Positions 21,714 through 63,508 of a stretch of DNA of 64,000 nucleotides are shown piece after piece. The notes beneath the pieces were generated by a model that saw only the letters and a list, made by a program, of their open reading frames with translations, made no database searches and was not told the origin of the DNA. Source of the stretch: a bacterium UBP2_UBA2255 (lineage in GTDB: Bacteria > Edwardsbacteria > AC1 > EtOH8); the NCBI GenBank assembly GCA_002347565.1, contig DDXR01000049.1, forward strand, positions 42,302-106,301. Reading direction: 5' to 3'. Position 1 is the first letter of the stretch; each line of letters begins with the position of its first letter. The translations under genes and the position numbers were made by a program.

Positions 21714-23689
21714 TGTGCGGCATTCTGGGTCTGATCCAGCGGCCCGACCGGGCGGTCGACGTCGGCCGGTTCGCGGAATCCCTGCAGTCGATGCGCCACC
21801 GCGGGCCCGATGGCGAGGGCATCTACCTGCTGAACTCGGCCTCCGGCGCCGGCGCAGCCTGGGCTGGCAGCGACACCGATCCCCGGCTCCGGCTGCCGGC
21901 GGTGGCCGGTGCCGCCGGCAGCCGGGCCAATATCGCGCTGGGGCACCGCCGCCTGGCGATCATCGACCTGTCCCCCTCGGGCCATCAGCCGATGGCCAGC
22001 CGGGACCGCCGGCAGTGGATCGTCCTGAACGGTGAGGTTTACAATTACCGCGAATTGCGGAGCGAGCTGCGCGGCCGCGGCCATTCCTTCGTGTCATCAT
22101 CCGATACCGAGGTCGTGCTGGCCGCCTACCGGGAGTGGGGGCCGCTGTCGGTCGGGCGGTTCGTGGGGATGTTCGCCCTGGCGATCATCGACATCCCGCG
22201 GCGCGCTGTTTTCCTAGCGCGCGATCATTTCGGCATCAAGCCGCTCTACTACGCATTCGACGGCCGGCAGCTGGCGTTCGCATCCGAGATCGGGCCGCTG
22301 CTGCGGCTGCGCGGCGGGCGGCCCCGGATCGATCCCCGGCGCACCTACGAATACCTGCGGTACAACCTGTCGGACTACGGCGATGCCACCATGTTCCAGG
22401 GGATCTCCCAGTTGCCGACGGCGAGCACCATGGAGCTGTCCTGGGAGGACATGCGGCTGTCCGGGCCGACCGCCTACTGGCGGATCGACGGCGTTGCGCC
22501 GAGCGACATCGGCCGGCCGGAGGCGGCGCGCGAGCTGCGGCGGCTGCTCGAGGAGAGCGTCGGGTACCATCTCCGAAGCGATGTGCCGGTCGGATCGTGC
22601 CTGTCCGGCGGCCTGGACTCCAGCGCCATCGTCGCCATGATGCGCCAGCGCCTCGGGCCGCGGCGGTCGATCCAGACGTTCAGCTACGTCAGCGATGACC
22701 GCCTGTTGTCCGAGGAACGCTACATCGACATGGTCAACGGCGCCAACGCCTGCGTCCCCCACAAGACGACGATCTCACCGGACGAGCTGGCCAGGGACCT
22801 GGACAGCTTGATCCGGGTGCAGGAGCTGCCGTTCATGAGCACCAGCATCTACGCCCAGTACCGGGTCTTCCGGCTGGCGGGTGAATGCGGCATCAAGGTG
22901 ATGCTGGACGGGCAGGGAGCGGATGAGCTGTTCGCTGGCTACCTCAACCTGCTGGGGGCCAGGATCACGGCGCTGCTGGCCGGCCGCGACTGGTCCGGGG
23001 CCCGGCGGCTGTGTCGCGCGGTGCCGCTGAACATGGGCGGCTATCGCTTCGGCATGCTGGCGACAGCGCTCGGCCGGCTGGCGCCGGCCAGGCTCCATGG
23101 CCAGATGATGGCGGCGGCCGGGCAGCCGATCTGGCCGTCATGGCTGAACCCCGGATGGTTCGCCGAACGGGGCGTGGCGGCGGCGCCCCGGGCTTATGGG
23201 CGGGGGAGACAGGCGCTGCGCGAGGAGCTGCGACTGGCGATCGAGCAGGCGAGCCTCCCCAACCTGCTGCGCTTCGAGGACCGGAATTCAATGGCCCATT
23301 CGATCGAAAGCCGAGTTCCGTTCTGCAACCACCGGCTGGCGGAGTTCGCTTTCTCGCTGCCCGATGATTACCTGATCGACGGCAGCGGGACGACCAAGGC
23401 GATCCTCAAGCAGAGCCTGGGGGGGGTGCTGCCGGAGGAGATCCTCAACCGGGAGAAGGTCGGGTTCGCCGTGCCGGAGCGCCGCTGGGCGGTGCAGCTG
23501 GCCCCGTGGATCGAGCGCATCCTGGCCGGCGCCCACGACGATGGATTTCCGATGCTCGATCTGCCCAAGGTCAGGAAAACCGTGCGGCGGCAGATGGAGG
23601 ACGGACGCCGACACCTGCTGGGGGAGAGCTGGCGGATCGTGCTTTTCATCCGCTGGGCGGCGATCTGGGGCGCCGATGTCGCTGCCTGA
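21713..23689 (+). CDS. asnB: Asparagine synthase-like glutamine amidotransferase (sugar amidation, WbpS/LtsA-like)
   Basis: MCGI start, HRGPDG, GHRRLAIIDLS..GHQPM, LSGGLDSS, DGQGADELFAGY, DRNSMAHSIE.RVPF. Confidence 0.92.
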   Translation: MCGILGLIQRPDRAVDVGRFAESLQSMRHRGPDGEGIYLLNSASGAGAAWAGSDTDPRLRLPAVAGAAGSRANIALGHRRLAIIDLSPSGHQPMASRDRRQWIVLNGEVYNYRELRSELRGRGHSFVSSSDTEVVLAAYREWGPLSVGRFVGMFALAIIDIPRRAVFLARDHFGIKPLYYAFDGRQLAFASEIGPLLRLRGGRPRIDPRRTYEYLRYNLSDYGDATMFQGISQLPTASTMELSWEDMRLSGPTAYWRIDGVAPSDIGRPEAARELRRLLEESVGYHLRSDVPVGSCLSGGLDSSAIVAMMRQRLGPRRSIQTFSYVSDDRLLSEERYIDMVNGANACVPHKTTISPDELARDLDSLIRVQELPFMSTSIYAQYRVFRLAGECGIKVMLDGQGADELFAGYLNLLGARITALLAGRDWSGARRLCRAVPLNMGGYRFGMLATALGRLAPARLHGQMMAAAGQPIWPSWLNPGWFAERGVAAAPRAYGRGRQALREELRLAIEQASLPNLLRFEDRNSMAHSIESRVPFCNHRLAEFAFSLPDDYLIDGSGTTKAILKQSLGGVLPEEILNREKVGFAVPERRWAVQLAPWIERILAGAHDDGFPMLDLPKVRKTVRRQMEDGRRHLLGESWRIVLFIRWAAIWGADVAA

Positions 23690-24950
23690 TGGGGGCCGCC
23701 TGGTCGCGGCACCGCGGCGCTCCCCGATCCGCGTCGCCGTACTGACCGAGACCTTTGCCAAGGGCATGGGCTATGCTGGCAGCATGCTGCCGAAGTACCT
23801 TGCCCGGCTCGGGGCCGACGTCCACGTCATCACCATGGACCTGTCGCCGTACCATTCCCTCGCCGAGTTCCAGCAGATCTACGGCGGGATCACCGGCGCC
23901 GACGCCATCAAGCCCGGCACGGTCGAGCGATACGATGGCTATCACCTTCATGTGCTGGGGCACGCCCGGGTGATGGGATACATGCGGATGGTGGGGCTGG
24001 GGCCGGTGATCGCCGAGCTCAGGCCGGATGTCGTTCAGACCTTCGCCGCCATCGGGCCGATCCCGATGGATGCGGCCCTGCTGCGGCTCCGGTTCGGCTA
24101 CAAGCTGTTCACCGGAAACCACACCACGGCATCGGTGTTCCCGCTGGCGCAGGCGGCCCTGCCCTGCTGGCACCGCCGGCGGCTGCAGTGCCTCGCCCTG
24201 CGCAGCGCCCCCGGGCGCGTGATCAGCTGGTTCACCGAGCGCTGCTACGGCGCCACCGTCGACTGCGGGGAGGTCGCGGTCAAGTTCTTCGGCGTCCCGC
24301 GCCGAAAACTGACCGTCTGCCCGCTGGGCGTCGACAGCGAGGTATTCCACCCGGCGCCGGTGGCGGAAGGCGCTGAACGAGCCGCCCTGCGGCGGGAACT
24401 CGGGTTCGCAGACCACGAGATCGTCTGCATCTACACCGGCCGCTTCACCGAAGCCAAGAACCCGGCGCTGCTGGCCGAGGCCGTCGCCCGGCTGGCGCGG
24501 CAGGGCCGGCCATTCCGCGGGCTCTTCCTTGGGAGCGGCCCCCAGCAGGAACGGTTGCAGGGCAGCCCGGCCTGTTCGGTGCTGCCGTTCCGGCCGGTCA
24601 ACGAGCTCGGCAGGTACTTCCGGGCCAGCGAGATCGGCGTCTGGCCCACCCAGGAATCGACCTCGATGCTGGATGCGGCCGCCTGCGGTCTGCCGATCGT
24701 TGTCAACGACACGCTGCAGGCCGGGGAACGGGTCGAGGGGAACGGGCTGCGCTACCGGTTGAACGACCTTGACGACCTGGTCGCTGCGCTGCGCCGGCTG
24801 GAGGATCCAGCGCTGCGGTCCCGGCTGGGTTCAGCGGGAGCCGAGAAGATGCGGCGGGAGTACAGCTGGGAGAGCATCGCCCGCAGGCGCCTCGCGGATT
24901 ACCAACGGGCGCTCGAACCGCAGCCGGCCGCATGCGCCGGAACCGAATAG
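23676..24950 (+). CDS. Glycosyltransferase family 4
   Basis: PLGVD..F.P, YTGRF...K, DAAACGLP.VV, YSWE.IA. Confidence 0.85.
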   Translation: MSLPDGGRLVAAPRRSPIRVAVLTETFAKGMGYAGSMLPKYLARLGADVHVITMDLSPYHSLAEFQQIYGGITGADAIKPGTVERYDGYHLHVLGHARVMGYMRMVGLGPVIAELRPDVVQTFAAIGPIPMDAALLRLRFGYKLFTGNHTTASVFPLAQAALPCWHRRRLQCLALRSAPGRVISWFTERCYGATVDCGEVAVKFFGVPRRKLTVCPLGVDSEVFHPAPVAEGAERAALRRELGFADHEIVCIYTGRFTEAKNPALLAEAVARLARQGRPFRGLFLGSGPQQERLQGSPACSVLPFRPVNELGRYFRASEIGVWPTQESTSMLDAAACGLPIVVNDTLQAGERVEGNGLRYRLNDLDDLVAALRRLEDPALRSRLGSAGAEKMRREYSWESIARRRLADYQRALEPQPAACAGTE

Positions 24951-24959
24951 CACGAAGAC

Positions 24960-25736
24960 ATGTTCGTCCGCAACCTGAAGAAAATAGCCAACCGGTTGGG
25001 GTTCGAGGTCCGCCGCACGCCCGCGGTGCCCTATGACGACCAGGCATCAGCCGAGCGGGCCATCGCGGTGGTCGCGCCGTACACCATGCTCCCGTGGGAG
25101 CGTCTGGTGACGCTGTACCAGAAGGTGGCCTTTTGCGAGCGGTCGGGGCTGGACGGCGATTTGGTGGAATGCGGCGTCTGGAAAGGCGGTGCCGCGGCGC
25201 TAATGGCCCTGGCCAACATCGAATTGGGCCGAACGCGGCGCCACCTCCACCTGTTTGATTCGTTCCAAGAGATCTGCGCGCCGGATCAGGCGGTCGACGG
25301 CGAGCAAGCGGTGCGTGAGGCGCGCCGTCACGGCAGCGACTGCCTGGGCCAGCTCCGTCCGGTCACGGGGATCTATGACGCCGTTGGCGGTCCGGGGACC
25401 CTTCCCGGGAATCGCCGGCTGCTGGAGCAGGTTGTCGGCTATGACCCGGGATTCCTCCACTATCACGCCGGGTGGTTCCAGGAGACCCTGCCCCGGGACG
25501 CCCCCGGCATGGGGCCGATCGCGATCCTGCGGCTGGACGGTGATTGGTACGCTTCCACCAAAACCTGCTTGGCGCACTTGTACGATAAGGTCGTGTCCGG
25601 AGGTTTCGTGGTCATCGACGACTACGGCGCCTATCAGGGGTGCCGACGGGCGGTGGATGAGTTCATGGCGGAACGGCGCGTCAGCGCGTTTCTCCATTAC
25701 GACGATCGCATCTGCCGGTACTGGGTCAAGCCGTGA
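24960..25736 (+). CDS. TylF/MycF/NovP-family sugar O-methyltransferase
   Basis: GD.VECGVWKGG, LFDSF, GWFQETLP, LRLDGDWY.ST, IDDYG...GC..AVDEF. Confidence 0.92.
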   Translation: MFVRNLKKIANRLGFEVRRTPAVPYDDQASAERAIAVVAPYTMLPWERLVTLYQKVAFCERSGLDGDLVECGVWKGGAAALMALANIELGRTRRHLHLFDSFQEICAPDQAVDGEQAVREARRHGSDCLGQLRPVTGIYDAVGGPGTLPGNRRLLEQVVGYDPGFLHYHAGWFQETLPRDAPGMGPIAILRLDGDWYASTKTCLAHLYDKVVSGGFVVIDDYGAYQGCRRAVDEFMAERRVSAFLHYDDRICRYWVKP

Positions 25737-48270: not shown

Positions 48271-49233
48271 ATGACCTTCGTTGACCTGATCATCGAGCGC
48301 CATTCGTGCGACCACGCGCTGCAGCAGGCGGTCGCCCTTATCAACGCGCGGCGGTACCGCCAGGCCATCCCCATTCTGGATGCGCTCCACCGCCGAGAGC
48401 CGCAGGGCTGCATCCAGAGCAGCGAGGTGGTGCAGTTCTACCTGATCGAGTCGCGCATGGCGCTGGCCCGCCGGGCGGCGCAGCGACGGGCGCTGGCCGA
48501 GGCGATCCGCGAGTACGGCGCGGCCGCGAAGCTGGCGCCGCGGTATGCCGACCTGCGCCATGCGCTGGGGATGATCGAGTACGAGCGGAGGCGCTACGCG
48601 GCAGCCGCCGCCGAGTTCCGCCGGGCGCTGCGGATCAACCCCCGGTACCAGGCGGCGCGCGTCCAGCTCGGGCTGACGATGCTCCGGCAGCGCCGGTACC
48701 GGGCCGGCCTGCGCCTGTTCGCCGGCCTGGCGCGCGACTGCAGCCTGGTCGACCAGGAGCGATACGACCGCGCCGTGGCCGCGGCGCAACGCCGCCGGTA
48801 CCGGGAGGCCGAGGGCGGTTTCGCGGCGGCGTTCCGGTCGAGGCCCGACCGGGGAAGGGCCCTCTGCGCCATGGGCCAGGACGCCTATCGGGAGAGCCGT
48901 TACGACGAGGCCATCCGCCATTTCCGGCAGGCGCAGCGGCTGGCACCGGGCTATGCGGATGTTTACAACAATCTCGGCGCCTGCTACAGCCGGAAAGGGA
49001 ACTGGGGCAGGGCGGCCCGCTGTTTCGCCATGGCGGCATCGCTGGCTCCGCGCTTCACCCGCGCCTGGCTCAACCTGGCGTATGTCTGTGACCGGCTGGG
49101 CGACCGCGAACGGGCGGCGAGGGCGGCCCGTAGCGCCCTGCGGCTGGACCCGGCGAACAAGCTGGCGACCGCCATCCTGCGCCGCGACGGCGCAACCAGG
49201 ACGGCGGCACTGAAGGACCGGCAGCATGGCTGA
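48271..49233 (+). CDS. Tetratricopeptide repeat protein
   Basis: Repeated TPR motifs (P.YADLR..LG, AL.INP.Y..A...LG, P.YADVYNNLG). Confidence 0.85.
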   Translation: MTFVDLIIERHSCDHALQQAVALINARRYRQAIPILDALHRREPQGCIQSSEVVQFYLIESRMALARRAAQRRALAEAIREYGAAAKLAPRYADLRHALGMIEYERRRYAAAAAEFRRALRINPRYQAARVQLGLTMLRQRRYRAGLRLFAGLARDCSLVDQERYDRAVAAAQRRRYREAEGGFAAAFRSRPDRGRALCAMGQDAYRESRYDEAIRHFRQAQRLAPGYADVYNNLGACYSRKGNWGRAARCFAMAASLAPRFTRAWLNLAYVCDRLGDRERAARAARSALRLDPANKLATAILRRDGATRTAALKDRQHG

Positions 49234-49882
49234 GTTCAAGGATTACTACGCAGTCCTGGGTGTCGGCCGCACGGCCGCGGAGCAGGAGATCAAGGCCGCC
49301 TACCGGCGGCTGGCGGTGAGGCTCCATCCCGACAAGAACCCGGCCGAGAGCAAGCAGGGATTCGCCAGCAGCCAGTTCCAGGACGTCAACGAGGCCTATC
49401 ATACCCTGGTCGACCGCAGAAAGCGAGACGCCTACAACAAGCAGCTGCTGGCCCGCCAGACCGGCATGTCCGACGGTCACACGTACGAGGCCAACCAGGC
49501 CGAAATGGTGTACCGCCAGGGGGTCAAGGCCTACAACGAACAGAATTTCAAGCGGGCGGTGGAGTACTTCAAGGCCGCAGTCAGGCTCAATCCCAAAAAG
49601 GCGTCCTACTACGACCGGCTGGGGATCGCCATCGTGAAATCCGGCGGATCGATCGAGGACGCCCGCGCCCAGTGCGAAAAGGCCCAGCAGATGGAGATGT
49701 ACAACCCCGAGCACTACCTGTCGATGGGCATCATCTACCAGCTGGCCGGGCTGGGGGACAAGGCCCGGGAGCAGTTCCGGGAGGCCCTCAAGTGGGATCC
49801 CGCCAACGCCGCCGCCAAGCAGCGCCTGGAGCAGCTCGGCCGGAGCAAGAAGGGGTTCTTCGGCAAGATGTTCGGCGGGTGA
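49226..49882 (+). CDS. J-domain (DnaJ) protein with C-terminal TPRs
   Basis: DYYAVLGV...EIKAAYRRLA..LHPDKN with intact HPD; TPRs; C-terminal KKGFFGKMFGG amphipathic tail. Confidence 0.9.
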   Translation: MAEFKDYYAVLGVGRTAAEQEIKAAYRRLAVRLHPDKNPAESKQGFASSQFQDVNEAYHTLVDRRKRDAYNKQLLARQTGMSDGHTYEANQAEMVYRQGVKAYNEQNFKRAVEYFKAAVRLNPKKASYYDRLGIAIVKSGGSIEDARAQCEKAQQMEMYNPEHYLSMGIIYQLAGLGDKAREQFREALKWDPANAAAKQRLEQLGRSKKGFFGKMFGG

Positions 49883-49940
49883 CCGACCCTCCCGTTGAAC
49901 GCGCCGCCTCCCGAGCCAACATCACGAAGGTAACCGTCCA

Positions 49941-50318
49941 ATGGACATGGCGAACTACGAGCAGCGGTTGAAGGAGCTGGTTGACAGCATCCCGGGTGCG
50001 GCGTCGGCCAACCTGACCGGCATCGACGGCATCGGGATCGCGGCCAGCAGTCTCGATCCGACGCTGGACCCGACGCTGGCCGACGCCGAGTTCGCCACCA
50101 TGCTGGCCACCGCCAACCGCGCCGCGGGCAACCTGCAGGTGGGTGACATCTCCGAGCTGATCTTCGCCACCGACAGGATCATGATCATCCTCAAGATGGT
50201 GGGCCAGGATTTCTACCTAGCGGTGGGGCTGCCGGCGGCCGCCGGCAACCTGGGGATGGCCCGGCTACAGATGCGCTGGGCGGTGGACGATTTCGCCAAG
50301 ATGCTGTACGCCGCGTGA
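49941..50318 (+). CDS. Roadblock/LC7 (MglB-like) domain protein
   Basis: L..LVDSIPGA..A.L.G.DGI.IA, LQVGDI.ELI, NLG.AR pattern. Confidence 0.82.
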   Translation: MDMANYEQRLKELVDSIPGAASANLTGIDGIGIAASSLDPTLDPTLADAEFATMLATANRAAGNLQVGDISELIFATDRIMIILKMVGQDFYLAVGLPAAAGNLGMARLQMRWAVDDFAKMLYAA

Positions 50319-53544: not shown

Positions 53545-54603
53545 ATGCCGTCGGACTACGGGTACATCAACGCCCGGATCAAGGGATGGCACAGCCGCCT
53601 GCTGACGGCCGGCGCAGTGACCGAGATCGCCGACCTGCCTGATTTTCCGGCTTTTCTGAAATGGATGGCCGCCGGTCCGTACGCGGCCGATTGGCAGCTG
53701 GCCCGTGCCCGGTTCGAGGGATTGGAAGCGGTCGAGCAGGCGCTGGAAGCGAATTTCGGCCAGACCACCCGGCGGTTGTTGGCGGTCTCGGACGGCGCCC
53801 CGCGCCGCCTGATCGGGATCATGCTGCGGCGCTGGGACCTGGCCAACCTCAAGACGGTGGTCCGTGGCATCGCCCGCCAGCACGGTTCGCAGGAGATCGC
53901 CCGCAACCTGTGGCCGGCCGGCAACCTGGTGATGGTCCGCCTGAGGGAGCTGGCCCAGCAGCGCGACCTGCGCGGCGTGGCGGACGTGCTGGCCACCTGG
54001 CGCGACCCGCTGGCGCAGCCCCTGATTGAATGCCTGGCAGGGTTCGACCGGGACCACGACCTGGTGCCGGTCGAACTGGCGCTGGACCGGTTCCATTTCC
54101 GCGACTCGCTGCGGCGGCTGCGAGGCCCGGAGAGCAACCGCAGCCTGATGGCGGGCCTGCTGCGGCGGGAGATCGACCTGGCCAATGCCAAAACGGCCAG
54201 GAGGCTGGCCGGTCAGGCCGCGGATCAGGCGCGGGATCCCCGGGCCTATGTGATCGACGGCGGCGAAGTCATCGATGCCGAGGCCGTGGCCGAATTGCTC
54301 GATCCCAGGACGCGCAGCCGCCGGCTGCGTGCCCTGCGGGCATCGCCCTACCACGGCTATCTGGCCGGCACCGGCGACCCGGTCCGGCTGGAGGATGAAC
54401 TCGACCATTCGTTCTGGCGCCACTGCGCCCGGCTGTACCGGGCCCGGCCGCTGGCGATCGACGTGGCCGTCGGCTTCATCTGGCGGAAACAGTACGAGCT
54501 GGTCAACCTGCGCCTGCTGGCCCGGTCCAAGTTCTACGGGCTGCCGCCGGAAGAGATACGCAGCCAGCTGTTCCTGGACGTTGCGGGCGGCCGCTGCGGC
54601 TGA
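53545..54603 (+). CDS. atpC: V/A-type ATP synthase subunit C (d)
   Basis: YGYINARI.G..SRLL, RWDL.NLKT..R, EID..N, K..E..NLR..AR. Confidence 0.92.
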   Translation: MPSDYGYINARIKGWHSRLLTAGAVTEIADLPDFPAFLKWMAAGPYAADWQLARARFEGLEAVEQALEANFGQTTRRLLAVSDGAPRRLIGIMLRRWDLANLKTVVRGIARQHGSQEIARNLWPAGNLVMVRLRELAQQRDLRGVADVLATWRDPLAQPLIECLAGFDRDHDLVPVELALDRFHFRDSLRRLRGPESNRSLMAGLLRREIDLANAKTARRLAGQAADQARDPRAYVIDGGEVIDAEAVAELLDPRTRSRRLRALRASPYHGYLAGTGDPVRLEDELDHSFWRHCARLYRARPLAIDVAVGFIWRKQYELVNLRLLARSKFYGLPPEEIRSQLFLDVAGGRCG

Positions 54604-54675: not shown

Positions 54676-55884
54676 ATGAACCGCATCGCACTCGGCGCCA
54701 TTGCCCTGGTCCTGACGGCCGGACTGGCCGGCGCGGCGCCGGAAGCGCCGCCGGCCGCGCCGCCCGGTGAGGCGTCTGCCGCCGGACTGACGGCGGTCGA
54801 CACTCCCAACGACGAGGGGCGGTCGATCACCGTCACCTGGGCCCGGTCGCCCCGGGACATCGGCGATGCCGCCGTGTTCAAGGGCTACCAGATCCTGCGG
54901 GCCGACCACGCCGATGGGCCGTTCGCCGAGGTCGGGTTCGTCATCGGCGGCAAGACGGAGTTCCGCGACAACGTGGCCGAGGGCGCGGCGCACTGGTACC
55001 GCGTGCGCGCCGTGGCCGGCAGCGATTCATCGGAAACGGGGACGGCCGGTCCGGTCCGGGCGTCGGCCCAGTGGTTCGACGCCGGCCGCAGCAACGTGCT
55101 GATCGTGACCGTCCTGCTGGCGTTCCTGATGATCTGGTACATCGAGCGGGCCAAGAAGGGCGAGGAGCTGTTCATCCGGAAGATCCACGGCCTGGACGCC
55201 ATCGACGAGGCGGTGGGGCGGTCCACCGAGCTGGGCAAGCCGGTGCTGTTCTCGTTCGGCCTGGGCGAGATCAAGGACATCGTGACCGTGGCCGCGCTGT
55301 CAATCCTGCGCCAGGTCGCGGTGCGCTGCGCCCAGCACGGCACCGAGCTGCTGGTCCCGAACTGGGACCCGCTGGTGATGGCCGCGGCCCAGGAGACCAT
55401 CCAGCAGGCCTACTCCGAGCCGGGCCGGCCCGACCTGTACAAGGAGGGCAACGTCAGCTTCCTGACCTCGGATCAGTTCGGGTACGCCGCGGGCGTCGAC
55501 GGCATGATGATCCGGCAGAAGCCGGGGGCGGTGTTCTTCATGGGCTACTTCTATGCCGAGGCCCTGCTGATGTCGGAGACCGGCCACTCGGTGGGCGCGA
55601 TCCAGATCGCCGGGACCACGGCGGTCACCCAGCTGCCGTTCTTCATCGCCTCCTGCGACTACACCCTGATCGGCGAGGAGATGCTGGCTGCCAGCTGCTA
55701 CCTGAAGCGCGATCCCCAGCTGCTGGGGTCGATCAAGGGCGAGGATTTCGTCAAGGCCATCCTGATCGTCGGGTTCGCGGCGCTGGCCGTGGTCGGCACC
55801 GCCGGCGCCCTGCTGGCCGGCGCCGGGCGTCCCTGGCTGTCCGGCGTGTTCCAGGCCATCATCCAGTGGTTCGTGACCGCATGA
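54676..55884 (+). CDS. Uncharacterised membrane protein: signal peptide, FN3-like domain and DUF6754-like domain
   Basis: DTPND.G..I.V.W...Y.I.R...Y.V.AV (FN3-like); TM; IRKI.GLDAIDEAVGR.TE.GKP, QIAGT...QLPFF...CDY.LIGEE (family name recalled, not searched). Confidence 0.75.
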   Translation: MNRIALGAIALVLTAGLAGAAPEAPPAAPPGEASAAGLTAVDTPNDEGRSITVTWARSPRDIGDAAVFKGYQILRADHADGPFAEVGFVIGGKTEFRDNVAEGAAHWYRVRAVAGSDSSETGTAGPVRASAQWFDAGRSNVLIVTVLLAFLMIWYIERAKKGEELFIRKIHGLDAIDEAVGRSTELGKPVLFSFGLGEIKDIVTVAALSILRQVAVRCAQHGTELLVPNWDPLVMAAAQETIQQAYSEPGRPDLYKEGNVSFLTSDQFGYAAGVDGMMIRQKPGAVFFMGYFYAEALLMSETGHSVGAIQIAGTTAVTQLPFFIASCDYTLIGEEMLAASCYLKRDPQLLGSIKGEDFVKAILIVGFAALAVVGTAGALLAGAGRPWLSGVFQAIIQWFVTA

Positions 55885-55921
55885 CGCGCGCGTCACTGAT
55901 CGAAATGAAGGAGCGGCGCCC

Positions 55922-56554
55922 ATGAAAAAAGAGATCCCATTGGCCATCACCTTCCTGACCGGCCTGATCATCGTGGTCACGTTCTTCATCCCCCACCAGC
56001 CGCTGGGGACGATGCAGCAGCGGCTGCTGATCTGGTACTCGATCGTGCTGGGGTTCACCATGCTGCTGGGCGTGGACAGCTTGCTGCGCAGCAACCTCAA
56101 GCGGCTGGTGGGGCGCACCCCGGGATGGCCGTACGCCGCAGTGCTGCTCGCCGGGTTCGCGTTCACCCTGGCGGCCGGGATCTACAACTGGGCCACCACC
56201 AGGTCGCTGCTGACCCTGGGGTCGCCGTTCATGTTCGTCTACACCTTCGTGATCGTGCCCCTGCAGGCGACCATGTTCGCGGTGCTGGCGTTCTTCATCG
56301 CGTCGGCCGCCTACCGCGCCTTCCGGGCCCGCACCCTGGAGGCGACCCTGCTGCTGGTCACCGCCGCCATCGTCATGATCGGGCGGGTGCCGGTGGGGGC
56401 CGAGCTGTGGGACAAGCTGCCGGTCCTGGCCGACTGGATCATGGAGGTCCCCCAGATGGCGGCCAAGCGGGGCATCGTCATCGGCGTGGCCCTGGGGACC
56501 ATCGCCATGTCGCTGCGGGTGATCCTGGGCCTGGAACGGACCTACCTGTCATGA
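55922..56554 (+). CDS. Uncharacterised membrane protein (~6 TM), subunit 2 of the module
   Basis: RBS AAGGAG; PL.ATMF..LAFFIASAAYRAFRAR; RGI.IG.ALG. Confidence 0.8.
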   Translation: MKKEIPLAITFLTGLIIVVTFFIPHQPLGTMQQRLLIWYSIVLGFTMLLGVDSLLRSNLKRLVGRTPGWPYAAVLLAGFAFTLAAGIYNWATTRSLLTLGSPFMFVYTFVIVPLQATMFAVLAFFIASAAYRAFRARTLEATLLLVTAAIVMIGRVPVGAELWDKLPVLADWIMEVPQMAAKRGIVIGVALGTIAMSLRVILGLERTYLS

Positions 56555-56576
56555 AGCGCAGCAGAGGAGAACGACG

Positions 56577-57398
56577 ATGAGATTCTTCGAGCGGATCGCC
56601 GCCATCGACCGGCGGCTGATCTACCTGGCGCTGGCGCTGTCGGTGCTCATCCCCCTGCTGTTCAAGATGGTGCTCCCGACCCGCGTCTCCGAGCCGGTGC
56701 GGGCCGCCTACCGGTCGATCGATGACCTGCCCGAAGGTTCCGTGGTGATGATCTCGGTCGACTACGACGCCTCGTCGGCGCCGGAGCTGCAGCCCATCTA
56801 TCTCGGCATCCTGCAGCACTGCTTCGCCAAGAAGCTCAAGGTGCTGGTGCTGGGGCAGTGGGTGATGGGGACCCCCTTCGGCGAGCTGGGCTTGGGCCGG
56901 ATCGCGCCGCTGTACGACGCCGTCTACGGCGTCGACTACGTCAACCTGGGGTACCGGCCCGGCTACCGCGCCCAGATGGTGGGGCTGGGCCGCGAGATTC
57001 GCGACTTCTTCGCGGTCGATTCCCGCGGCATCACCCTCGACAGCTTGCCGATGATGGCCGGGGTCCACAATTACAACCAGATCGACCTGCTGGTGGGTCT
57101 CGAGGCCGGCCAGGCCGGCGACGAGTGGATCCAATTCGCCGGCGCCCGCTACGGCGTCGACATCGTGATCGGCGCCACCGGCGTGGTGGCCCCCGACAAG
57201 TTCCATTACCTGCAGGCCCGGCAGATCCGCGGGCTGATCGGCGGCCTGCAGGGCGCGGCCGAGTACGAGACCCTGATCGGCAAGCCGGGCGCCGCCATCG
57301 CCGGCATGGTCGCCCAATCCTGGGCGCACCTCCTGCTGCTGGCGTTCATCGTCCTGGGCAACGTCGGATATTTCGTGATGCGGAGGGCCAAGCCATGA
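56577..57398 (+). CDS. Uncharacterised membrane-anchored protein, subunit 3 of the module
   Basis: N- and C-terminal TMs around a soluble domain; YGVDYVNLGY.PG; GLIGGL.GAAEYE.L. Confidence 0.8.
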   Translation: MRFFERIAAIDRRLIYLALALSVLIPLLFKMVLPTRVSEPVRAAYRSIDDLPEGSVVMISVDYDASSAPELQPIYLGILQHCFAKKLKVLVLGQWVMGTPFGELGLGRIAPLYDAVYGVDYVNLGYRPGYRAQMVGLGREIRDFFAVDSRGITLDSLPMMAGVHNYNQIDLLVGLEAGQAGDEWIQFAGARYGVDIVIGATGVVAPDKFHYLQARQIRGLIGGLQGAAEYETLIGKPGAAIAGMVAQSWAHLLLLAFIVLGNVGYFVMRRAKP

Positions 57399-58018
57399 CG
57401 CAGATCATCGGCACCTGGATCGCGGCCGGGCTGACCCTGGCCATCTTCTCCTTCCTCTACAAGGACAACCCGTTCTACAAGGTGGCGGAGCACCTCTACG
57501 TCGGTGTCTCGGCGGCCTACGCCGTGCTGTACGCCTGGGCCAACGACGTCTACCCGATGCTGGTCGAACCGATGTTCCTGGGCCGGGGCGCCGTCACCAC
57601 GGCCGACCGCTGGATCCTGCTGGTGCCGCTGCTGTTCGGCCTGATGATGCTGGCGCGGTGGGTGCCGAGGATCGCCTGGCTGTCGCGCTGGTCCATCGCA
57701 CTGACGGTAGGCATCGCGGCGGGCCTGGGCATCACCGGCCAGATCCAGGGCATTCTGCTGCCGCAGGTGGCCGGCACCCTGGTGCCGCTGACATCGGCCA
57801 ACAACGTTCTGATGGTGGCCGGCGTCATCGCCACGCTGGTGTACTTCTATTTCTCGATCGCCCAGAAGGGCGCGGTCAAAGTGGGCAGCCGGCTGGGCAT
57901 GGTGTTCATCATGGTCGCGTTCGGCGCCTCGTTCGGCTATACGGTGATGGCCAGGATCTCGCTGTTGATCGGGCGCCTGCAGTTCCTGGTGTTCGACTGG
58001 CTCCACGTGGTCAAGTGA
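57395..58018 (+). CDS. Uncharacterised membrane protein (~6 TM), subunit 4 of the module
   Basis: ATGA overlap; TL.IFSFLYKDNPFYK.AEH.YVG; FGASFGYTVM.R.SLLIGR..FL. Confidence 0.8.
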   Translation: MTQIIGTWIAAGLTLAIFSFLYKDNPFYKVAEHLYVGVSAAYAVLYAWANDVYPMLVEPMFLGRGAVTTADRWILLVPLLFGLMMLARWVPRIAWLSRWSIALTVGIAAGLGITGQIQGILLPQVAGTLVPLTSANNVLMVAGVIATLVYFYFSIAQKGAVKVGSRLGMVFIMVAFGASFGYTVMARISLLIGRLQFLVFDWLHVVK

Positions 58019-58052: not shown

Positions 58053-58355
58053 ATGAACGACCTGACCGCTGTCAAGGGGGTGCGGGCCTGGGCGGTGTTC
58101 GCCAACGACGCGCCGGTGGAGGGCGAGGCCAAGGGCGAGCTGGGGGACAAGGCGGGCGAGATCGAGCAGTTCTGGGTGAACGCGGCCTCGGTGATCGCCA
58201 GCAACTTCCGGCTGGGCCAGCTGCGCGAGGTGGCCGTGGCCGGCCCCGACCGGCAGGTGCTGATGCTGCTGGCCGGCGACCGGACCGTGGTGTGCGAGGT
58301 CGATCCCGCCGCCGACTGGAAGGCGCTGGCGGGCGAGATCCGGAGGAAGATGTAG
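58053..58355 (+). CDS. Roadblock/LC7-like small protein
   Basis: L..VKGV....V...D; LGQL.EV.V.G....VL....G; 100 aa; RBS GAGGAGG. Confidence 0.65.
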   Translation: MNDLTAVKGVRAWAVFANDAPVEGEAKGELGDKAGEIEQFWVNAASVIASNFRLGQLREVAVAGPDRQVLMLLAGDRTVVCEVDPAADWKALAGEIRRKM

Positions 58356-58356
58356 C

Positions 58357-58905
58357 ATGGCACTTGCAGACGCGATAGCTGCTGGCAGGGTGGCGGGCCT
58401 CAAGGGCGCGTTCCTGGTGCCGGCCGGCGGCGACATCCAGGCGCAGGGCTGCGACCAGTCGGCCGCGACCCCCAGCGCCGAGCTGGCCCGCCAGATCCAG
58501 GACATCGTCGGCCTGCCGACGCTGGACACCGTGTGGCTCGCCGCCGAGGGCGGCATCGCCGGCCTGCGGCTGGCCGCCGGGGCGACGGCCGGGGTGCTGC
58601 TGGGGCCGGACGGGGCGGCCGGGCCCGCCCGCAAGCTGCTGGACGCGTTGCTGGCAGCCCCGGCGGCCGGAACGGGCGGCGGCGACGCCATCAACCAGAT
58701 CCGCAAGGTCGCCACCGAGTACCTCACCGACTTCGCCGAGACCGCGCTGATGATCCAGATCAAGCAGTCGGGTCTGGACGAGAAGAACCCCAGCCCCGAA
58801 AGCCTGGCCAAGCTGGCCGGCGGCCTGGAGAAGGCGGCGCTGATGATCATCGGCCCCTCGCGAGCCAAGGAGATGGGCGAGAGGCTGAAGAAGGCGATAT
58901 CATGA
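58357..58905 (+). CDS. Degenerate roadblock-like domain fused to a C-terminal helical domain
   Basis: V.GLKGAFLV..GG.I, GL.TLDTVWL; C-terminal INQIRKVATEYL..FA...L.KLA..LEKAA...IG. Confidence 0.55.
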   Translation: MALADAIAAGRVAGLKGAFLVPAGGDIQAQGCDQSAATPSAELARQIQDIVGLPTLDTVWLAAEGGIAGLRLAAGATAGVLLGPDGAAGPARKLLDALLAAPAAGTGGGDAINQIRKVATEYLTDFAETALMIQIKQSGLDEKNPSPESLAKLAGGLEKAALMIIGPSRAKEMGERLKKAIS

Positions 58906-58998: not shown

Positions 58999-59322
58999 AT
59001 GAATAGGCTGGCCGTCATCACCGACAGCGGCACCGCCACCGGGTTCCGGATGGCGGGGGTGGACACCTTCGAGGTCGCCTCCGAACCGCAGCTCCAGGCC
59101 AAGCTGGCCGAGCTGATCGCGACGGGCGACTACGGGCTGATCGCCGTCAACCAAGACCTGGCGGCGGACCTGGGCGAGGAGGTCGACCGCATCATGAAGA
59201 ATCGCGCCCTGCCGGTGATCCTGCCGTTCCCGGTGCCCAAGGGCGGGACGGTGGAGAGCGGCGAGGCCTACCTCAATAAGCTGGTCAAGGACGCCATCGG
59301 GTTCTACGTCAAGCTGAAGTGA
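58999..59322 (+). CDS. atpF: V/A-type ATP synthase subunit F
   Basis: AVI.D..TATGFR.AGV, YGLIAV, LPV.LP.P, Y...LV..AIGF..KL. Confidence 0.92.
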   Translation: MNRLAVITDSGTATGFRMAGVDTFEVASEPQLQAKLAELIATGDYGLIAVNQDLAADLGEEVDRIMKNRALPVILPFPVPKGGTVESGEAYLNKLVKDAIGFYVKLK

Positions 59323-59807
59323 CCGCGGTGAAATCGATGACGTTCCTGGGATACCTCTTCGTCGCGTGCTGCTTCGCCGGTTGCAGCAAGGACCCGGCCG
59401 CGCCTGGAGCGACCCCCACGTTGGACACTGCCACGCTGACGGATTCCCTGCATGCAGTCGCCATCGGCATGTCGCGCCGGGAATGCCAGATCGACATCCA
59501 GCTGGCGTATTCGATCAATCGTTACCCGCTGATCAAGGCCGGCTCCGACTCGGATATGGTGACCGTCTACCTGCACAACGGCAAGGCGATATCGACCGAC
59601 ACCCCATACAACGCTGGCGCGATCGTCAGGCAGGATTACCGGAACGGTGACCTCCTGGCGAGATCGGTGCAAGGGGGATGGGGCTCGGACACGACGGCAC
59701 ACGTCCTGATGGCTTCCGATACCCTGACCACCATCGACAGTGCCACGGTCGACGTGTGGTGGTGGTTTGATGGCGGCCGCCAGGTGCACCACCGGCTTTT
59801 CCCGTAG
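59319..59807 (+). CDS. Hypothetical lipoprotein
   Basis: Lipobox FAGC after a hydrophobic stretch; GTGA overlap with the subunit F stop (alternative start 59337). Confidence 0.6.
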
Positions 59808-59851
59808 ACCACAGCACAGCAACCATCGAATATATCCTTCGGGGAGAACCT

Positions 59852-61594
<1,743 letters not shown>

Positions 61595-61680
61595 CTGCCG
61601 ACGAACGGTATCCACTATATCGTAGACGCTATCCAGTAGAGGATACTGAGTAGTGAATACTGAATAGGGAAGGCAACAGT

Positions 61681-62595
61681 ATGCGTTTAGTCACCCGCTC
61701 CGATTTCGACGGTTTGATCTGCGGCGTCCTGCTGCAGGAGGCCGGCATCGTCGACTCGTCCCTGTTCGTCCACCCCAAGGACGTCCAGGACGGCAAGGTC
61801 GAGGTCACGGCCAACGACGTGCTGGCCAACGTGCCCTACGCCAAGGGCTGCGGCCTGTGGTTCGACCACCACATGTCCGAGGAGGAGCGCGCCGCCTTCC
61901 CCCACGACTTCAAGGGCGCGTCCCTGCCGGCGAAGAGCTGCGCCCGGGTGATCTACGAGTACTACGGCGGCCGGGAGAAATTCCCGCGGTTCGAGGACAT
62001 GCTCAAGGCGGTGGACAAGTCCGACTCCGGCGGCCTGTCGCTGGAGGAGGTGGCCCAGCCCACCGGCTGGCTGCTGCTGGCCTTCCTGATGGACCCGCGC
62101 ACCGGCCTGGGCCGCTTCTCGGACTACCGCATCAGCAACCTGCAGCTGATGCAGGACCTGATGGAGCGATGCCGCACCATGGCGATCGCCGAGATCCTGG
62201 AGCTGCCCGACGTCACGGAGCGGATCAGGCGCTACCGCGAGTCGGAGTGGCTCTACAAGGAGATGATCAAGAGCAACGCCAAGGTCCACGGCAACGTGCT
62301 GGTGGTGGACCTGCGCAACGTGGAGAACATCGCCACCGGCAACCGCTTCGTGGAGTACGGCATGTTCCCGGCCATCAACATCTCGGTGCGGGTGATGTGG
62401 GGCGTCAAGAAGCAGAACGTGGTGTTCGCCGTGGGACACAGCATCCTCAACCGCACCTCCAAGACCAACGTCGGCTCGCTGATGCTGAAGCACAACGGCG
62501 GCGGCCATCCCAAGGTGGGCACCTGCCAGGTGCCGACCGACCAGGCCGACGCGGTGCTGGCCGAGCTGGTCAGGAAGATGAACGCCGACGGCTGA
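61681..62595 (+). CDS. DHH-family phosphoesterase (nanoRNase/pAp-phosphatase or exopolyphosphatase-like)
   Basis: RLVTRSDFDGL, HPKD.QDG, FDHH, GGGH...GTCQ. Confidence 0.87.
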   Translation: MRLVTRSDFDGLICGVLLQEAGIVDSSLFVHPKDVQDGKVEVTANDVLANVPYAKGCGLWFDHHMSEEERAAFPHDFKGASLPAKSCARVIYEYYGGREKFPRFEDMLKAVDKSDSGGLSLEEVAQPTGWLLLAFLMDPRTGLGRFSDYRISNLQLMQDLMERCRTMAIAEILELPDVTERIRRYRESEWLYKEMIKSNAKVHGNVLVVDLRNVENIATGNRFVEYGMFPAINISVRVMWGVKKQNVVFAVGHSILNRTSKTNVGSLMLKHNGGGHPKVGTCQVPTDQADAVLAELVRKMNADG

Positions 62596-62607
62596 GGGGC
62601 CTCCCGA

Positions 62608-62946
62608 ATGACCGGTCCAGACCACGATACTTTCCGCACACTGTACAAGATCGTCGGGGGCCTCGATAAAAAATTCCCCGGCGGGAACGACCCGTTCCGG
62701 ATCTTGTCCCGCCTGATGGAGGAATCCGGGGAACTGGCGAGCGAGATACACCACTTCGAGGGCCTGAAACGCCATCGCCGGCAGGACCCGCCGGACAAGG
62801 GCCATCTCGCGAAGGAGTGCATGGACATCTTCACCGCGGTGCTCCATATCGCGAAGCACTACGGGATCGAAAAAGAGCTGTCCGCCCGGATCGACAAGCA
62901 CTACCGCATGGTCATTTCCGAGGGATTGGTCGAACCTCTTGAATGA
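62608..62946 (+). CDS. MazG-like nucleotide pyrophosphohydrolase domain protein
   Basis: L.RL.EE.GELA..I; L.KE..D......IA..YGI. Confidence 0.72.
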   Translation: MTGPDHDTFRTLYKIVGGLDKKFPGGNDPFRILSRLMEESGELASEIHHFEGLKRHRRQDPPDKGHLAKECMDIFTAVLHIAKHYGIEKELSARIDKHYRMVISEGLVEPLE

Positions 62947-63061
62947 TGTATGTTTTCAGGCTGAACCATGACCACGATACTATGCGGCATTCTATTTCTG
63001 ACGAGCTATCGTTGCATCGCAGCGTAGCGATCGACTGAACGACTACAGATTTGGAACTACA

Positions 63062-63508
63062 ATGGCACCGTTCAACAAGACCAAGAAATTCGGCAAGCCG
63101 TCCTTCAGCCGGCCGGACAGCCGGGCCCCGCGGAAGTTCGGCGCCGGACCGCGCCCGGCGGGCGGGCCCAAACGCTTCGGCGGGGGGCCGCGCGCAGCGG
63201 GCGCCCGGACGTTCGGCAAGCCGCCCTTCGACAAACAGCTGTTCAAGGCCACCTGCGCCAGCTGCGGCAATCCCTGCGAGGTGCCGTTCCGGCCGTCCGG
63301 CGAGAAGCCGGTCTACTGCCGCGACTGTTTCCGCCGGCAGGAGGGCGACGGCCCGGCACGCCCCGCGTTCCGCCGCGACGACGCGCCCCGGCCGATGCGC
63401 CCCGCGTTCCGCCGTCCCGAGCCGGCCGGCCCCGGCAACCTGGAGAAGGAGCTGGAGCGCATCAACCTCAAGCTGGACCGGATCCTGCGGGCACTAGAAG
63501 GCAATTGA
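63062..63508 (+). CDS. CxxC-x17-CxxC zinc-ribbon domain protein
   Basis: ATCASCG..CEVPF.P...KPVYCRDCF; basic Gly/Pro/Arg/Phe-rich flanks; C-terminal IN.KLD.IL coil. Confidence 0.85.
   Translation: MAPFNKTKKFGKPSFSRPDSRAPRKFGAGPRPAGGPKRFGGGPRAAGARTFGKPPFDKQLFKATCASCGNPCEVPFRPSGEKPVYCRDCFRRQEGDGPARPAFRRDDAPRPMRPAFRRPEPAGPGNLEKELERINLKLDRILRALEGN

Follow-up and report, generated by a model that had tools for sequence, protein, structure and literature searches.

Energy-coupling factor (ECF) transporters share an energising module (PMC7755397). Here we describe a cassette of four adjacent genes, A to D, located between the genes for subunits C and F of a V/A-type ATPase in a 64,000-nucleotide stretch of DNA (the window; contig DDXR01000049.1, positions 42,302 to 106,301, forward strand) from the bacterium UBP2_UBA2255 of the Edwardsbacteria (assembly GCA_002347565.1). 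We favour, with slightly less than even confidence, the reading that the cassette is the membrane module, specific for a substrate, of a transporter not described so far, which a shared GlmL-like ATPase with an actin fold would drive in trans. The likeness to ECF transporters would lie in the way of working, with one ATP-using module and several substrate-specific membrane units encoded apart; copy numbers (usually one ATPase and two to six DUF6754 genes, which mark subunit A, per genome) are compatible with the sharing of one energising module. The components differ: ECF transporters combine ABC ATPases with a single-protein S-component, whereas the cassette has four subunits, a putative ASKHA-fold ATPase partner and no ECF family match.

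Other described systems resemble single parts of the arrangement. The partner ATPase is similar to GlmL/MutL (B12 glutamate mutase) and Or-4 (ornithine degradation) in its PF13941 match and ASKHA-type phosphate motifs, but it is ~610 aa long, scores below all three relevant NCBIfam cut-offs, and travels with a barrel-sandwich protein and membrane cassettes. RnfA/RnfE and NqrD/NqrE are inverted pairs with conserved Cys pairs for a [2Fe-2S] cluster. Subunits B and D recall them as two six-helix proteins of ~200 aa with predicted opposite orientations, and the barrel-sandwich protein has a weak RnfC_N match; unlike the Rnf and Nqr pairs, B and D have no conserved Cys and no PF02508 match, and are not detectably homologous to each other. 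The V/A-type ATPase operon (G-I-K-E-C-F-A-B-D, subunits identified by Pfam) hosts the cassette, but A to D are not known subunits of this enzyme, and are missing from the same operon in a relative (G018) and from a second such operon in the source genome. Membership in the ABC/ECF, Rnf/Nqr, V-ATPase or mutase-accessory systems fails on the features tested. DUF6754 is a Pfam domain of unknown function, and this entry covers A alone, not B, C or D. Neither DUF6754 nor a description of the cassette was found in the literature searched, which lay outside subscription papers and supplements.

A fixed four-gene set in many uncultured bacterial groups

Subunit A is the FN3 and DUF6754 protein, and B, C and D are the three next genes downstream. 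Below, TM denotes a transmembrane helix, G000 the source genome, C7, C34, C37 and C64 its contigs, and other G and L labels the genomes and loci of relatives.

54676..55884, + strand: subunit A, 402 aa; signal peptide; FN3 arm (residues 36-132) outside; TM1 139-157; Rossmann-like DUF6754 domain, predicted cytoplasmic; TM2 362-380
54781..55071, + strand: FN3 domain of A, residues 36-132, from a model fold match
55063..55794, + strand: DUF6754 (PF20539) region of A; invariant R168, R182, E185, G195, G290, E295, E301, D328, E335 and D357
55922..56554, + strand: subunit B, 210 aa; six predicted TMs, N-terminus predicted inside; invariant S128, R132 and E205
56577..57398, + strand: subunit C, 273 aa; TM1 14-32; Rossmann-like domain, predicted outside; TM2 249-267; invariant E70, P73, E231 and H251
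57395..58018, + strand: subunit D, 207 aa; six predicted TMs, N-terminus predicted outside; invariant N25, E32 and R187; ATGA overlap with C

The gaps between the genes are 37 nt (A/B), 22 nt (B/C) and -4 nt (C/D, the ATGA overlap), and each of these junctions has a purine-rich stretch resembling a ribosome-binding site. The GC content at third codon positions (GC3) of A to D is 0.945-0.967, and their codon adaptation falls in percentiles 69-85 among 1,550 long open reading frames (ORFs) of G000. The first-pass annotation, made from the sequence of the window, had described four closely spaced, host-like genes with ribosome-binding sites, and this description holds. A recent foreign island is rejected on the host-like codon use, and a tblastn search of plasmids gave no match.

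G000 contains five complete A-B-C-D cassettes. The four outside the window are 39-52% identical to the window copy; three are arranged in tandem on C7 inside a cluster of DAO, Pyr_redox and ferredoxin genes, and one, on C37, follows a GlmL-like gene and a barrel-sandwich gene. Across all loci fetched, some of them redundant, 281 C genes have sufficient flanking sequence on either side, and the order is A-B-C-D for 280 of them with a relaxed coverage filter on D (221 of 278 with a stricter one). Among 76 genome loci from other records, A is present in 76, B in 74, C in 67 and D in 66, and the gaps lie mostly at contig ends. A search of 50%-identity representatives returned 2,093 matches at E<=0.001, and the nearest named relatives of the cassette proteins belong to Ca. 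Edwardsbacteria and WOR-3.

DUF6754 is present in all 19 genomes of the window's own phylum, in 121 of 121 genomes of the phylum of G019 (2-6 matches each), in 48 of 51 genomes of the phylum of G020 and in 10 of 10 genomes of one further phylum, and in none of 14 control genomes. The four genes are a fixed set common to many uncultured bacterial groups. The gene-neighbourhood comparison, which had been proposed along with the idea of an undescribed four-subunit unit that co-occurs elsewhere, bears out that idea.

Upstream of the three tandem cassettes, the dehydrogenase-like cluster on C7 contains a low-GC block (22200-25065, GC3 ~0.25) in which relatives differ in length. A 178-aa ORF in this block may encode a TIR-like protein.

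Folds and predicted arrangement of the subunits

Only subunit A has a family: residues 130-373 match DUF6754 with E 6e-106. In the model of A, residues 36-132 superimpose on the FN3 fold of 5g56 (Z 12.0, rmsd 2.2, 85 aligned), in line with the exported FN3/DUF6754-like protein annotated at first pass. The Pfam check that had been suggested for all four proteins gave no match for B, C or D at E<=0.1, and NCBIfam no convincing one; a weak TraX row for B (E 0.0012) scores 18.8 bits against a cut-off of 419. None of the four matches an ABC ATPase, an ECF T component or a solute-binding protein in Pfam or NCBIfam; the first-pass annotation had likewise seen no Walker A ATPase or classical substrate-binding protein among them. 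Six helices are predicted in B, six in D and two in C, which agrees with the two membrane proteins of about six TMs and the TM-flanked soluble protein seen in the initial reading.

The AlphaFold2 models of A (pLDDT 92.5) and C (pLDDT 94.5) have the same order of elements, namely a TM, a helix, six strands with intervening helices, and a second TM. The fold-search list of A consists mainly of FN3 domains; two rows concern the inner domain, namely Sir2A (3u31, Z 10.2, rmsd 4.0, 144 aligned) and LpxB (5w8x, Z 10.0, rmsd 3.2, 129 aligned). The rows of C are general Rossmann-like folds, such as 1kjn (Z 10.2, rmsd 3.1, 137 aligned) and SIRT1 (Z 8.6); a match to RCK/TrkA domains (3l4b, Z 9.4, rmsd 3.6, 126 aligned) is tied with many unrelated Rossmann folds. 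The Rossmann-like matches of the two modelled soluble domains are generic. Foldseek found nothing more specific for the two models, and there is no transporter membrane domain among the fold-search matches listed. Sequence searches of the PDB returned only FN3/titin proteins for A and none for C. Atlas searches gave only unnamed clusters for C and no named match by features for D, and the Atlas structure search of D recovered its own family (TM-score 0.87-0.91).

The N-terminal arm of A varies among relatives from none to ~1,000 residues, with FN3 repeats, beta-propellers and HEAT repeats. Total lengths range from 298 to 1,341 aa, and 90 of 150 representatives have at least 500 aa. In a scan of 50 of these proteins, PQQ-type beta-propellers, FN3 or HEAT repeats precede the domain in DUF6754 proteins of up to 1,341 aa, and many arms have no Pfam match.

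It had also been proposed that the two soluble-domain proteins might be distant paralogues. BLASTP and hhalign comparisons are not significant for A/C (hhalign probability 1-3%) or B/D (<1%), and our own profile alignment gives z 1.4 and 0.1, respectively. In an ungapped 30-residue profile scan of A against C, the windows A343-372/C234-263 rank first (offset -109), which includes a TM, and A311-340/C200-229 rank fourth in the same register (offset -111). The element order of the models and the equivalent place of the best ungapped window weakly favour distant paralogy of A and C, against which stands the low hhalign probability; the relationship is suggestive only.

The positive-inside rule, applied to the alignments, predicts A to be out-in-out, C in-out-in, B N-in and D N-out. 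The predicted layout is an antiparallel 2+2 arrangement of 16 helices, with B and D in opposite orientations, the soluble domain of A inside and that of C outside. Covariation was calculated from 319 cassettes (Neff 193) with seven re-paired controls, the highest control value being z 10.9. The top pairs, B182-C207 (z 12.3), B74-D30 (12.2), A155-D152 (11.9) and B78-D34 (11.2), all exceed this maximum. A helix ladder connects B TM3 with D TM2 (74-30, 74-34, 78-34, 78-38), and single strong pairs occur elsewhere (B182-C207, A155-D152, C214-D127). Seven of the nine top pairs lie at the same membrane depth, against one of nine with D flipped and a background of 27%, which supports a predicted B-D contact in opposite orientation. 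The helix pairs B1-D4 and B4-D1 both score high, as expected of a two-fold. The 2+2 layout of the first-pass annotation is favoured by the predicted antiparallel arrangement and the B-D covariation. A prediction of the complex from A(130-402), B, C and D gave 0.81 for D as partner in three runs, with controls of 0.00 and 0.00 (partner replaced) and 0.75 (chain 1 replaced); it allows no verdict and was not used as evidence. Taken together, A, B, C and D very probably form one complex.

Invariant charges are found at both membrane faces of the cassette subunits, and E32 and R187 of D, H251 of C and D357 of A lie near the faces. The predicted helix cores of the subunits contain no conserved acidic residue, and there is no column with at least 50% Cys in 346 B or 342 D sequences.

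The GlmL-like ATPase and its barrel-sandwich neighbour

The recurring partner is an ATPase of ~610 aa that matches PF13941 (GlmL/MutL-like) over ~450 positions. It is present in 19 of 19 genomes of the own phylum (the G000 copy is split over two contig ends), in 10 of 10 cassette-bearing genomes of other groups and in 120 of 121 genomes of the phylum of G019, 110 of which have a single match next to the 2-6 of DUF6754. These genomes are kin and mostly drafts, so that the counts overstate independence. In the phylum of G020, five of the 51 genomes were tested: the three without DUF6754 also lack the ATPase, and both positives have it. The class and phylum of G019 show no patchy DUF6754 pattern. 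Of two sets of 76 and 78 loci, 14 and 7, respectively, include the ATPase gene. In G002, G003, G010-G015 and four other genomes this gene stands away from any cassette; if linked to the cassettes, the ATPase must therefore act in trans. We consider a functional tie between cassette and ATPase likely.

The phosphate motifs D15-G17-S-T-T-T-K22 and D289-I-G-G-A-T-T-D296 are invariant in 14 of 14 sequences, and identity across groups is 63-70%. By sequence, the partner keeps phosphate-1 and phosphate-2 motifs of the ASKHA type, in the forms given in PMC5214803. It scores below the cut-offs of NF040745, NF040744 and TIGR01319 (226/475, 207/600 and 155/204 bits, respectively). The glutamate mutase E subunit (PF06368) is over its cut-off in none of five genomes tested, partly drafts, and PF09043 was matched nowhere, control genomes included. 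A role as mutase reactivase is rejected because of the scores below the GlmL/Or-4 cut-offs and the lack of a glutamate mutase E subunit over cut-off in the five genomes.

The 373-aa neighbour of the ATPase is a barrel-sandwich protein with weak matches to RnfC_N (E 7e-4) and biotin/lipoyl domains (E 1e-4). Sequence searches of the PDB returned nothing credible for this protein and nothing for the ATPase. In four genomes the two are fused into proteins of 924-952 aa (L119 7304-10075, L120 6968-9808, L121 8788-11565, L122 542-3397), which are second copies in their genomes and 38-42% identical to the main form. In several groups, glycine-cleavage genes followed by a conserved orphan gene of 106-135 aa precede the ATPase (L127 11780-16792, L128, L125, L126, L104, L115, L116 842-1243), and in those loci a lipoate ligase follows the cassette. 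TolQ, TolR, TolA and TolB genes come after the barrel-sandwich gene in L124 (3413-6595, families tested on this locus) and L130.

Proposed transport and its alternatives

Transporter modules with a shared motor would best account for the single conserved ATPase, the several old membrane paralogues, the predicted antiparallel core and the soluble domains on its two sides. We hypothesize that B and D form a 12-helix core in opposite orientations, to which A and C would each add two helices and a Rossmann-like domain, one per side. The outer domain of C and the variable arm of A may capture the substrate, and the ATPase, with its barrel-sandwich partner, may dock on the inner domain of A. The ATP cycle would then switch the core between outward- and inward-facing states, the direction of transport being, like the docking site, our conjecture. 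That the cassette transports anything at all we regard as an even chance. Each paralogous cassette would serve its own substrate; amino acids or peptides seem the first candidates, though a doubtful guess, which comes from the three G000 cassettes in the DAO/Pyr_redox/ferredoxin cluster and the glycine-cleavage genes before the ATPase in L127.

Several observations weigh against transport driven by this ATPase. No transporter is known to us to run on an ASKHA ATPase. Among 97 genes next to cassettes of other groups, those with a Pfam match at E<=1e-20 are miscellaneous and include few peptidases or aminotransferases (three TldD, two aminotransferase III, one S9, one M6). The co-absence of cassette and ATPase comes from three draft genomes of one phylum and 14 control genomes, with kin that are not independent, and no cassette lies near any of the four fusion proteins within the sequence fetched around them. 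The nine inter-chain pairs at z>=8.5 fall within the control range (0-10); A-B and A-C covariation shows nothing above controls, and a flip of A or C is not discriminated at z>=7. In 17 of the 19 own-phylum genomes the cassette has stayed at the atp operon, even where the paralogue has been swapped, and co-expression may thus be selected. Finally, near-universal presence in whole phyla fits a housekeeping role in the envelope equally well as nutrient uptake.

Such a role is the strongest of the alternatives, albeit an unlikely one. The ASKHA protein would be the cytoplasmic anchor, as PilM and FtsA are, of an envelope-spanning scaffold or export machine, in which A to D, with the long arms of A, reach the wall or outer membrane for assembly or export. 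The arms of up to ~1,000 residues with FN3, beta-propeller and HEAT domains, the cassette in nearly every genome of several phyla, and the Tol genes in L124 would all suit this model. However, a predicted core of 12 helices in antiparallel arrangement, with invariant charges at either face, would be more usual for a transporter, and no secretin, pilin or wall enzyme recurs among the cassette neighbours.

The first-pass annotation saw a transporter or sensor that runs on an ion gradient and is expressed together with the V-ATPase as its source of energy, a reading that we consider markedly less likely than a module driven by the GlmL-like ATPase. The insertion at this operon comprises the cassette and two passenger genes, given here with the atp genes at its borders:

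53545..54603, + strand: V/A-ATPase subunit C (atpC), left border of the insertion; PF01992 E 7e-55
58053..58355, + strand: 100-aa protein of roadblock type; the GlmL locus on C37 has a 234-aa roadblock gene, of whose N-terminal domain it is a diverged copy (hhalign probability 97.3); PF03259 weak on the orthologue
58357..58905, + strand: 182-aa protein; diverged copy of the 245-aa gene next after the roadblock gene in the GlmL locus (hhalign probability 98.5)
58999..59322, + strand: V/A-ATPase subunit F (atpF), right border of the insertion; PF01990 E 4.5e-20

The proposed location between atpC and atpF is correct, but the insert has six genes rather than four, as two roadblock-type genes follow D. 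The cassette lies after atpC or before atpF in 17 of the 19 own-phylum genomes (G004 and G017 seen on one side only). The contig of G014 ends at atpC. In G018, a genome of another class than the window, atpC and atpF are immediate neighbours, and the four cassettes lie at other places. The lasting position of the cassette in the 17 genomes, the antiparallel layout, and the invariant E32, R187, H251 and D357 near the membrane faces speak for an ion-gradient-driven system, as does the lack of a promoter-like site between the genes; a scan for promoters and terminators gave signals at chance level. On the other hand, atpC or atpF occurs in none of 237 cassette loci of other groups (117 with at least 1.2 kb upstream), where a single distant atpA-like match (27%, opposite strand) was found. 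Four of the five G000 cassettes lie away from the atp operon, the second V-ATPase operon of G000 has none, and further passengers (DHH, MazG-like, zinc finger) are found in the window's operon. The predicted helix cores are free of conserved acidic residues, and this reading does not account for the link to the ASKHA ATPase. A general tie to the V-ATPase, or energising by it, is accordingly not borne out: the position is limited to one lineage, and the recurring partner is a non-Walker ATPase.

In a FastTree tree of 69 concatenated cassettes, the window copy forms a group (support 1.0) with WOR-3 cassettes that lie away from atp operons and with a cassette of G018, the second in its GlmL locus, after which come LplA, DUF4388 and two roadblock-type genes. 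The two extra genes of the window are diverged copies of the last two there, from which we infer that the six-gene block was translocated from the end of a GlmL locus. In G012, G013 and G015, a C37-type paralogue (support 1.0) occupies the atpC-atpF slot without the two extra genes (L109, L024 and L110, respectively), and the ATPase locus of these genomes has no cassette. Recombination between paralogues could account for the swap, as could selection for co-expression. The window cassette is probably co-transcribed with the V-ATPase operon without being part of the ATPase.

The surroundings of the operon have features of their own. TPR, DnaJ-TPR and roadblock genes lie upstream (window 48271-50318), and genes for a 162-aa lipoprotein-like protein and for DHH-type, MazG-like and zinc-finger proteins are interspersed between atpF, atpA and atpB (59319-63508). 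Just beyond the window end (C64 ~106735), atpB spans N bases and is read as two ORFs, likely an assembly gap. The second V-type ATPase operon of G000 (C34 12944-19876) has a different gene order, and its A subunit is 41% identical to that of the window.

Still less probable is an ATP-linked ion pump or energy-conserving enzyme, with the GlmL-like protein and barrel-sandwich partner as catalytic head and A to D as the ion-conducting part. The high conservation and single copy of the ATPase, the weak RnfC_N and biotin/lipoyl matches of its partner, and residence in an ATPase operon in one lineage are compatible with a pump, but five old paralogous membrane modules per head suggest a variety of substrates, there is no mid-helix carboxylate, and B and D have no conserved Cys pairs for a redox centre. 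A transmembrane signalling complex, in which C senses an outside ligand and A relays to the ATPase and roadblock/DUF4388 regulators, is the least probable of these readings: roadblock-type and DUF4388 genes do follow the cassette in the own phylum and some WOR-3 loci, and C resembles RCK/TrkA domains, but DUF4388 is found in just 6 of 76 and 4 of 78 loci, that resemblance is not specific, and no kinase or regulator recurs. A redox relay is rejected because B and D lack conserved Cys.

Primary active transport in bacteria is known to run on ABC, P-type and rotary ATPases, redox enzymes, pyrophosphatases, decarboxylases and the phosphotransferase system (PTS). The cassettes and their proposed motor could, though we hold this broader claim with even less confidence than the driving in trans itself, represent a new class, near-universal in several uncultured phyla, in which an ATPase of actin/Hsp70 fold, together with a barrel-sandwich adaptor, would dock on one antiparallel four-subunit module after another and drive uptake. 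If true, a membrane carrier powered by an ASKHA-fold ATPase would introduce a new principle of coupling, and the annotation 'glutamate mutase L' in these genomes would be corrected. The cassette occurs in almost all genomes sampled from several little-studied phyla, often with four to six copies, which points to a place in the core physiology of abundant anaerobic and subsurface bacteria. Even without a role in transport, a conserved 16-helix complex without a characterised member remains.

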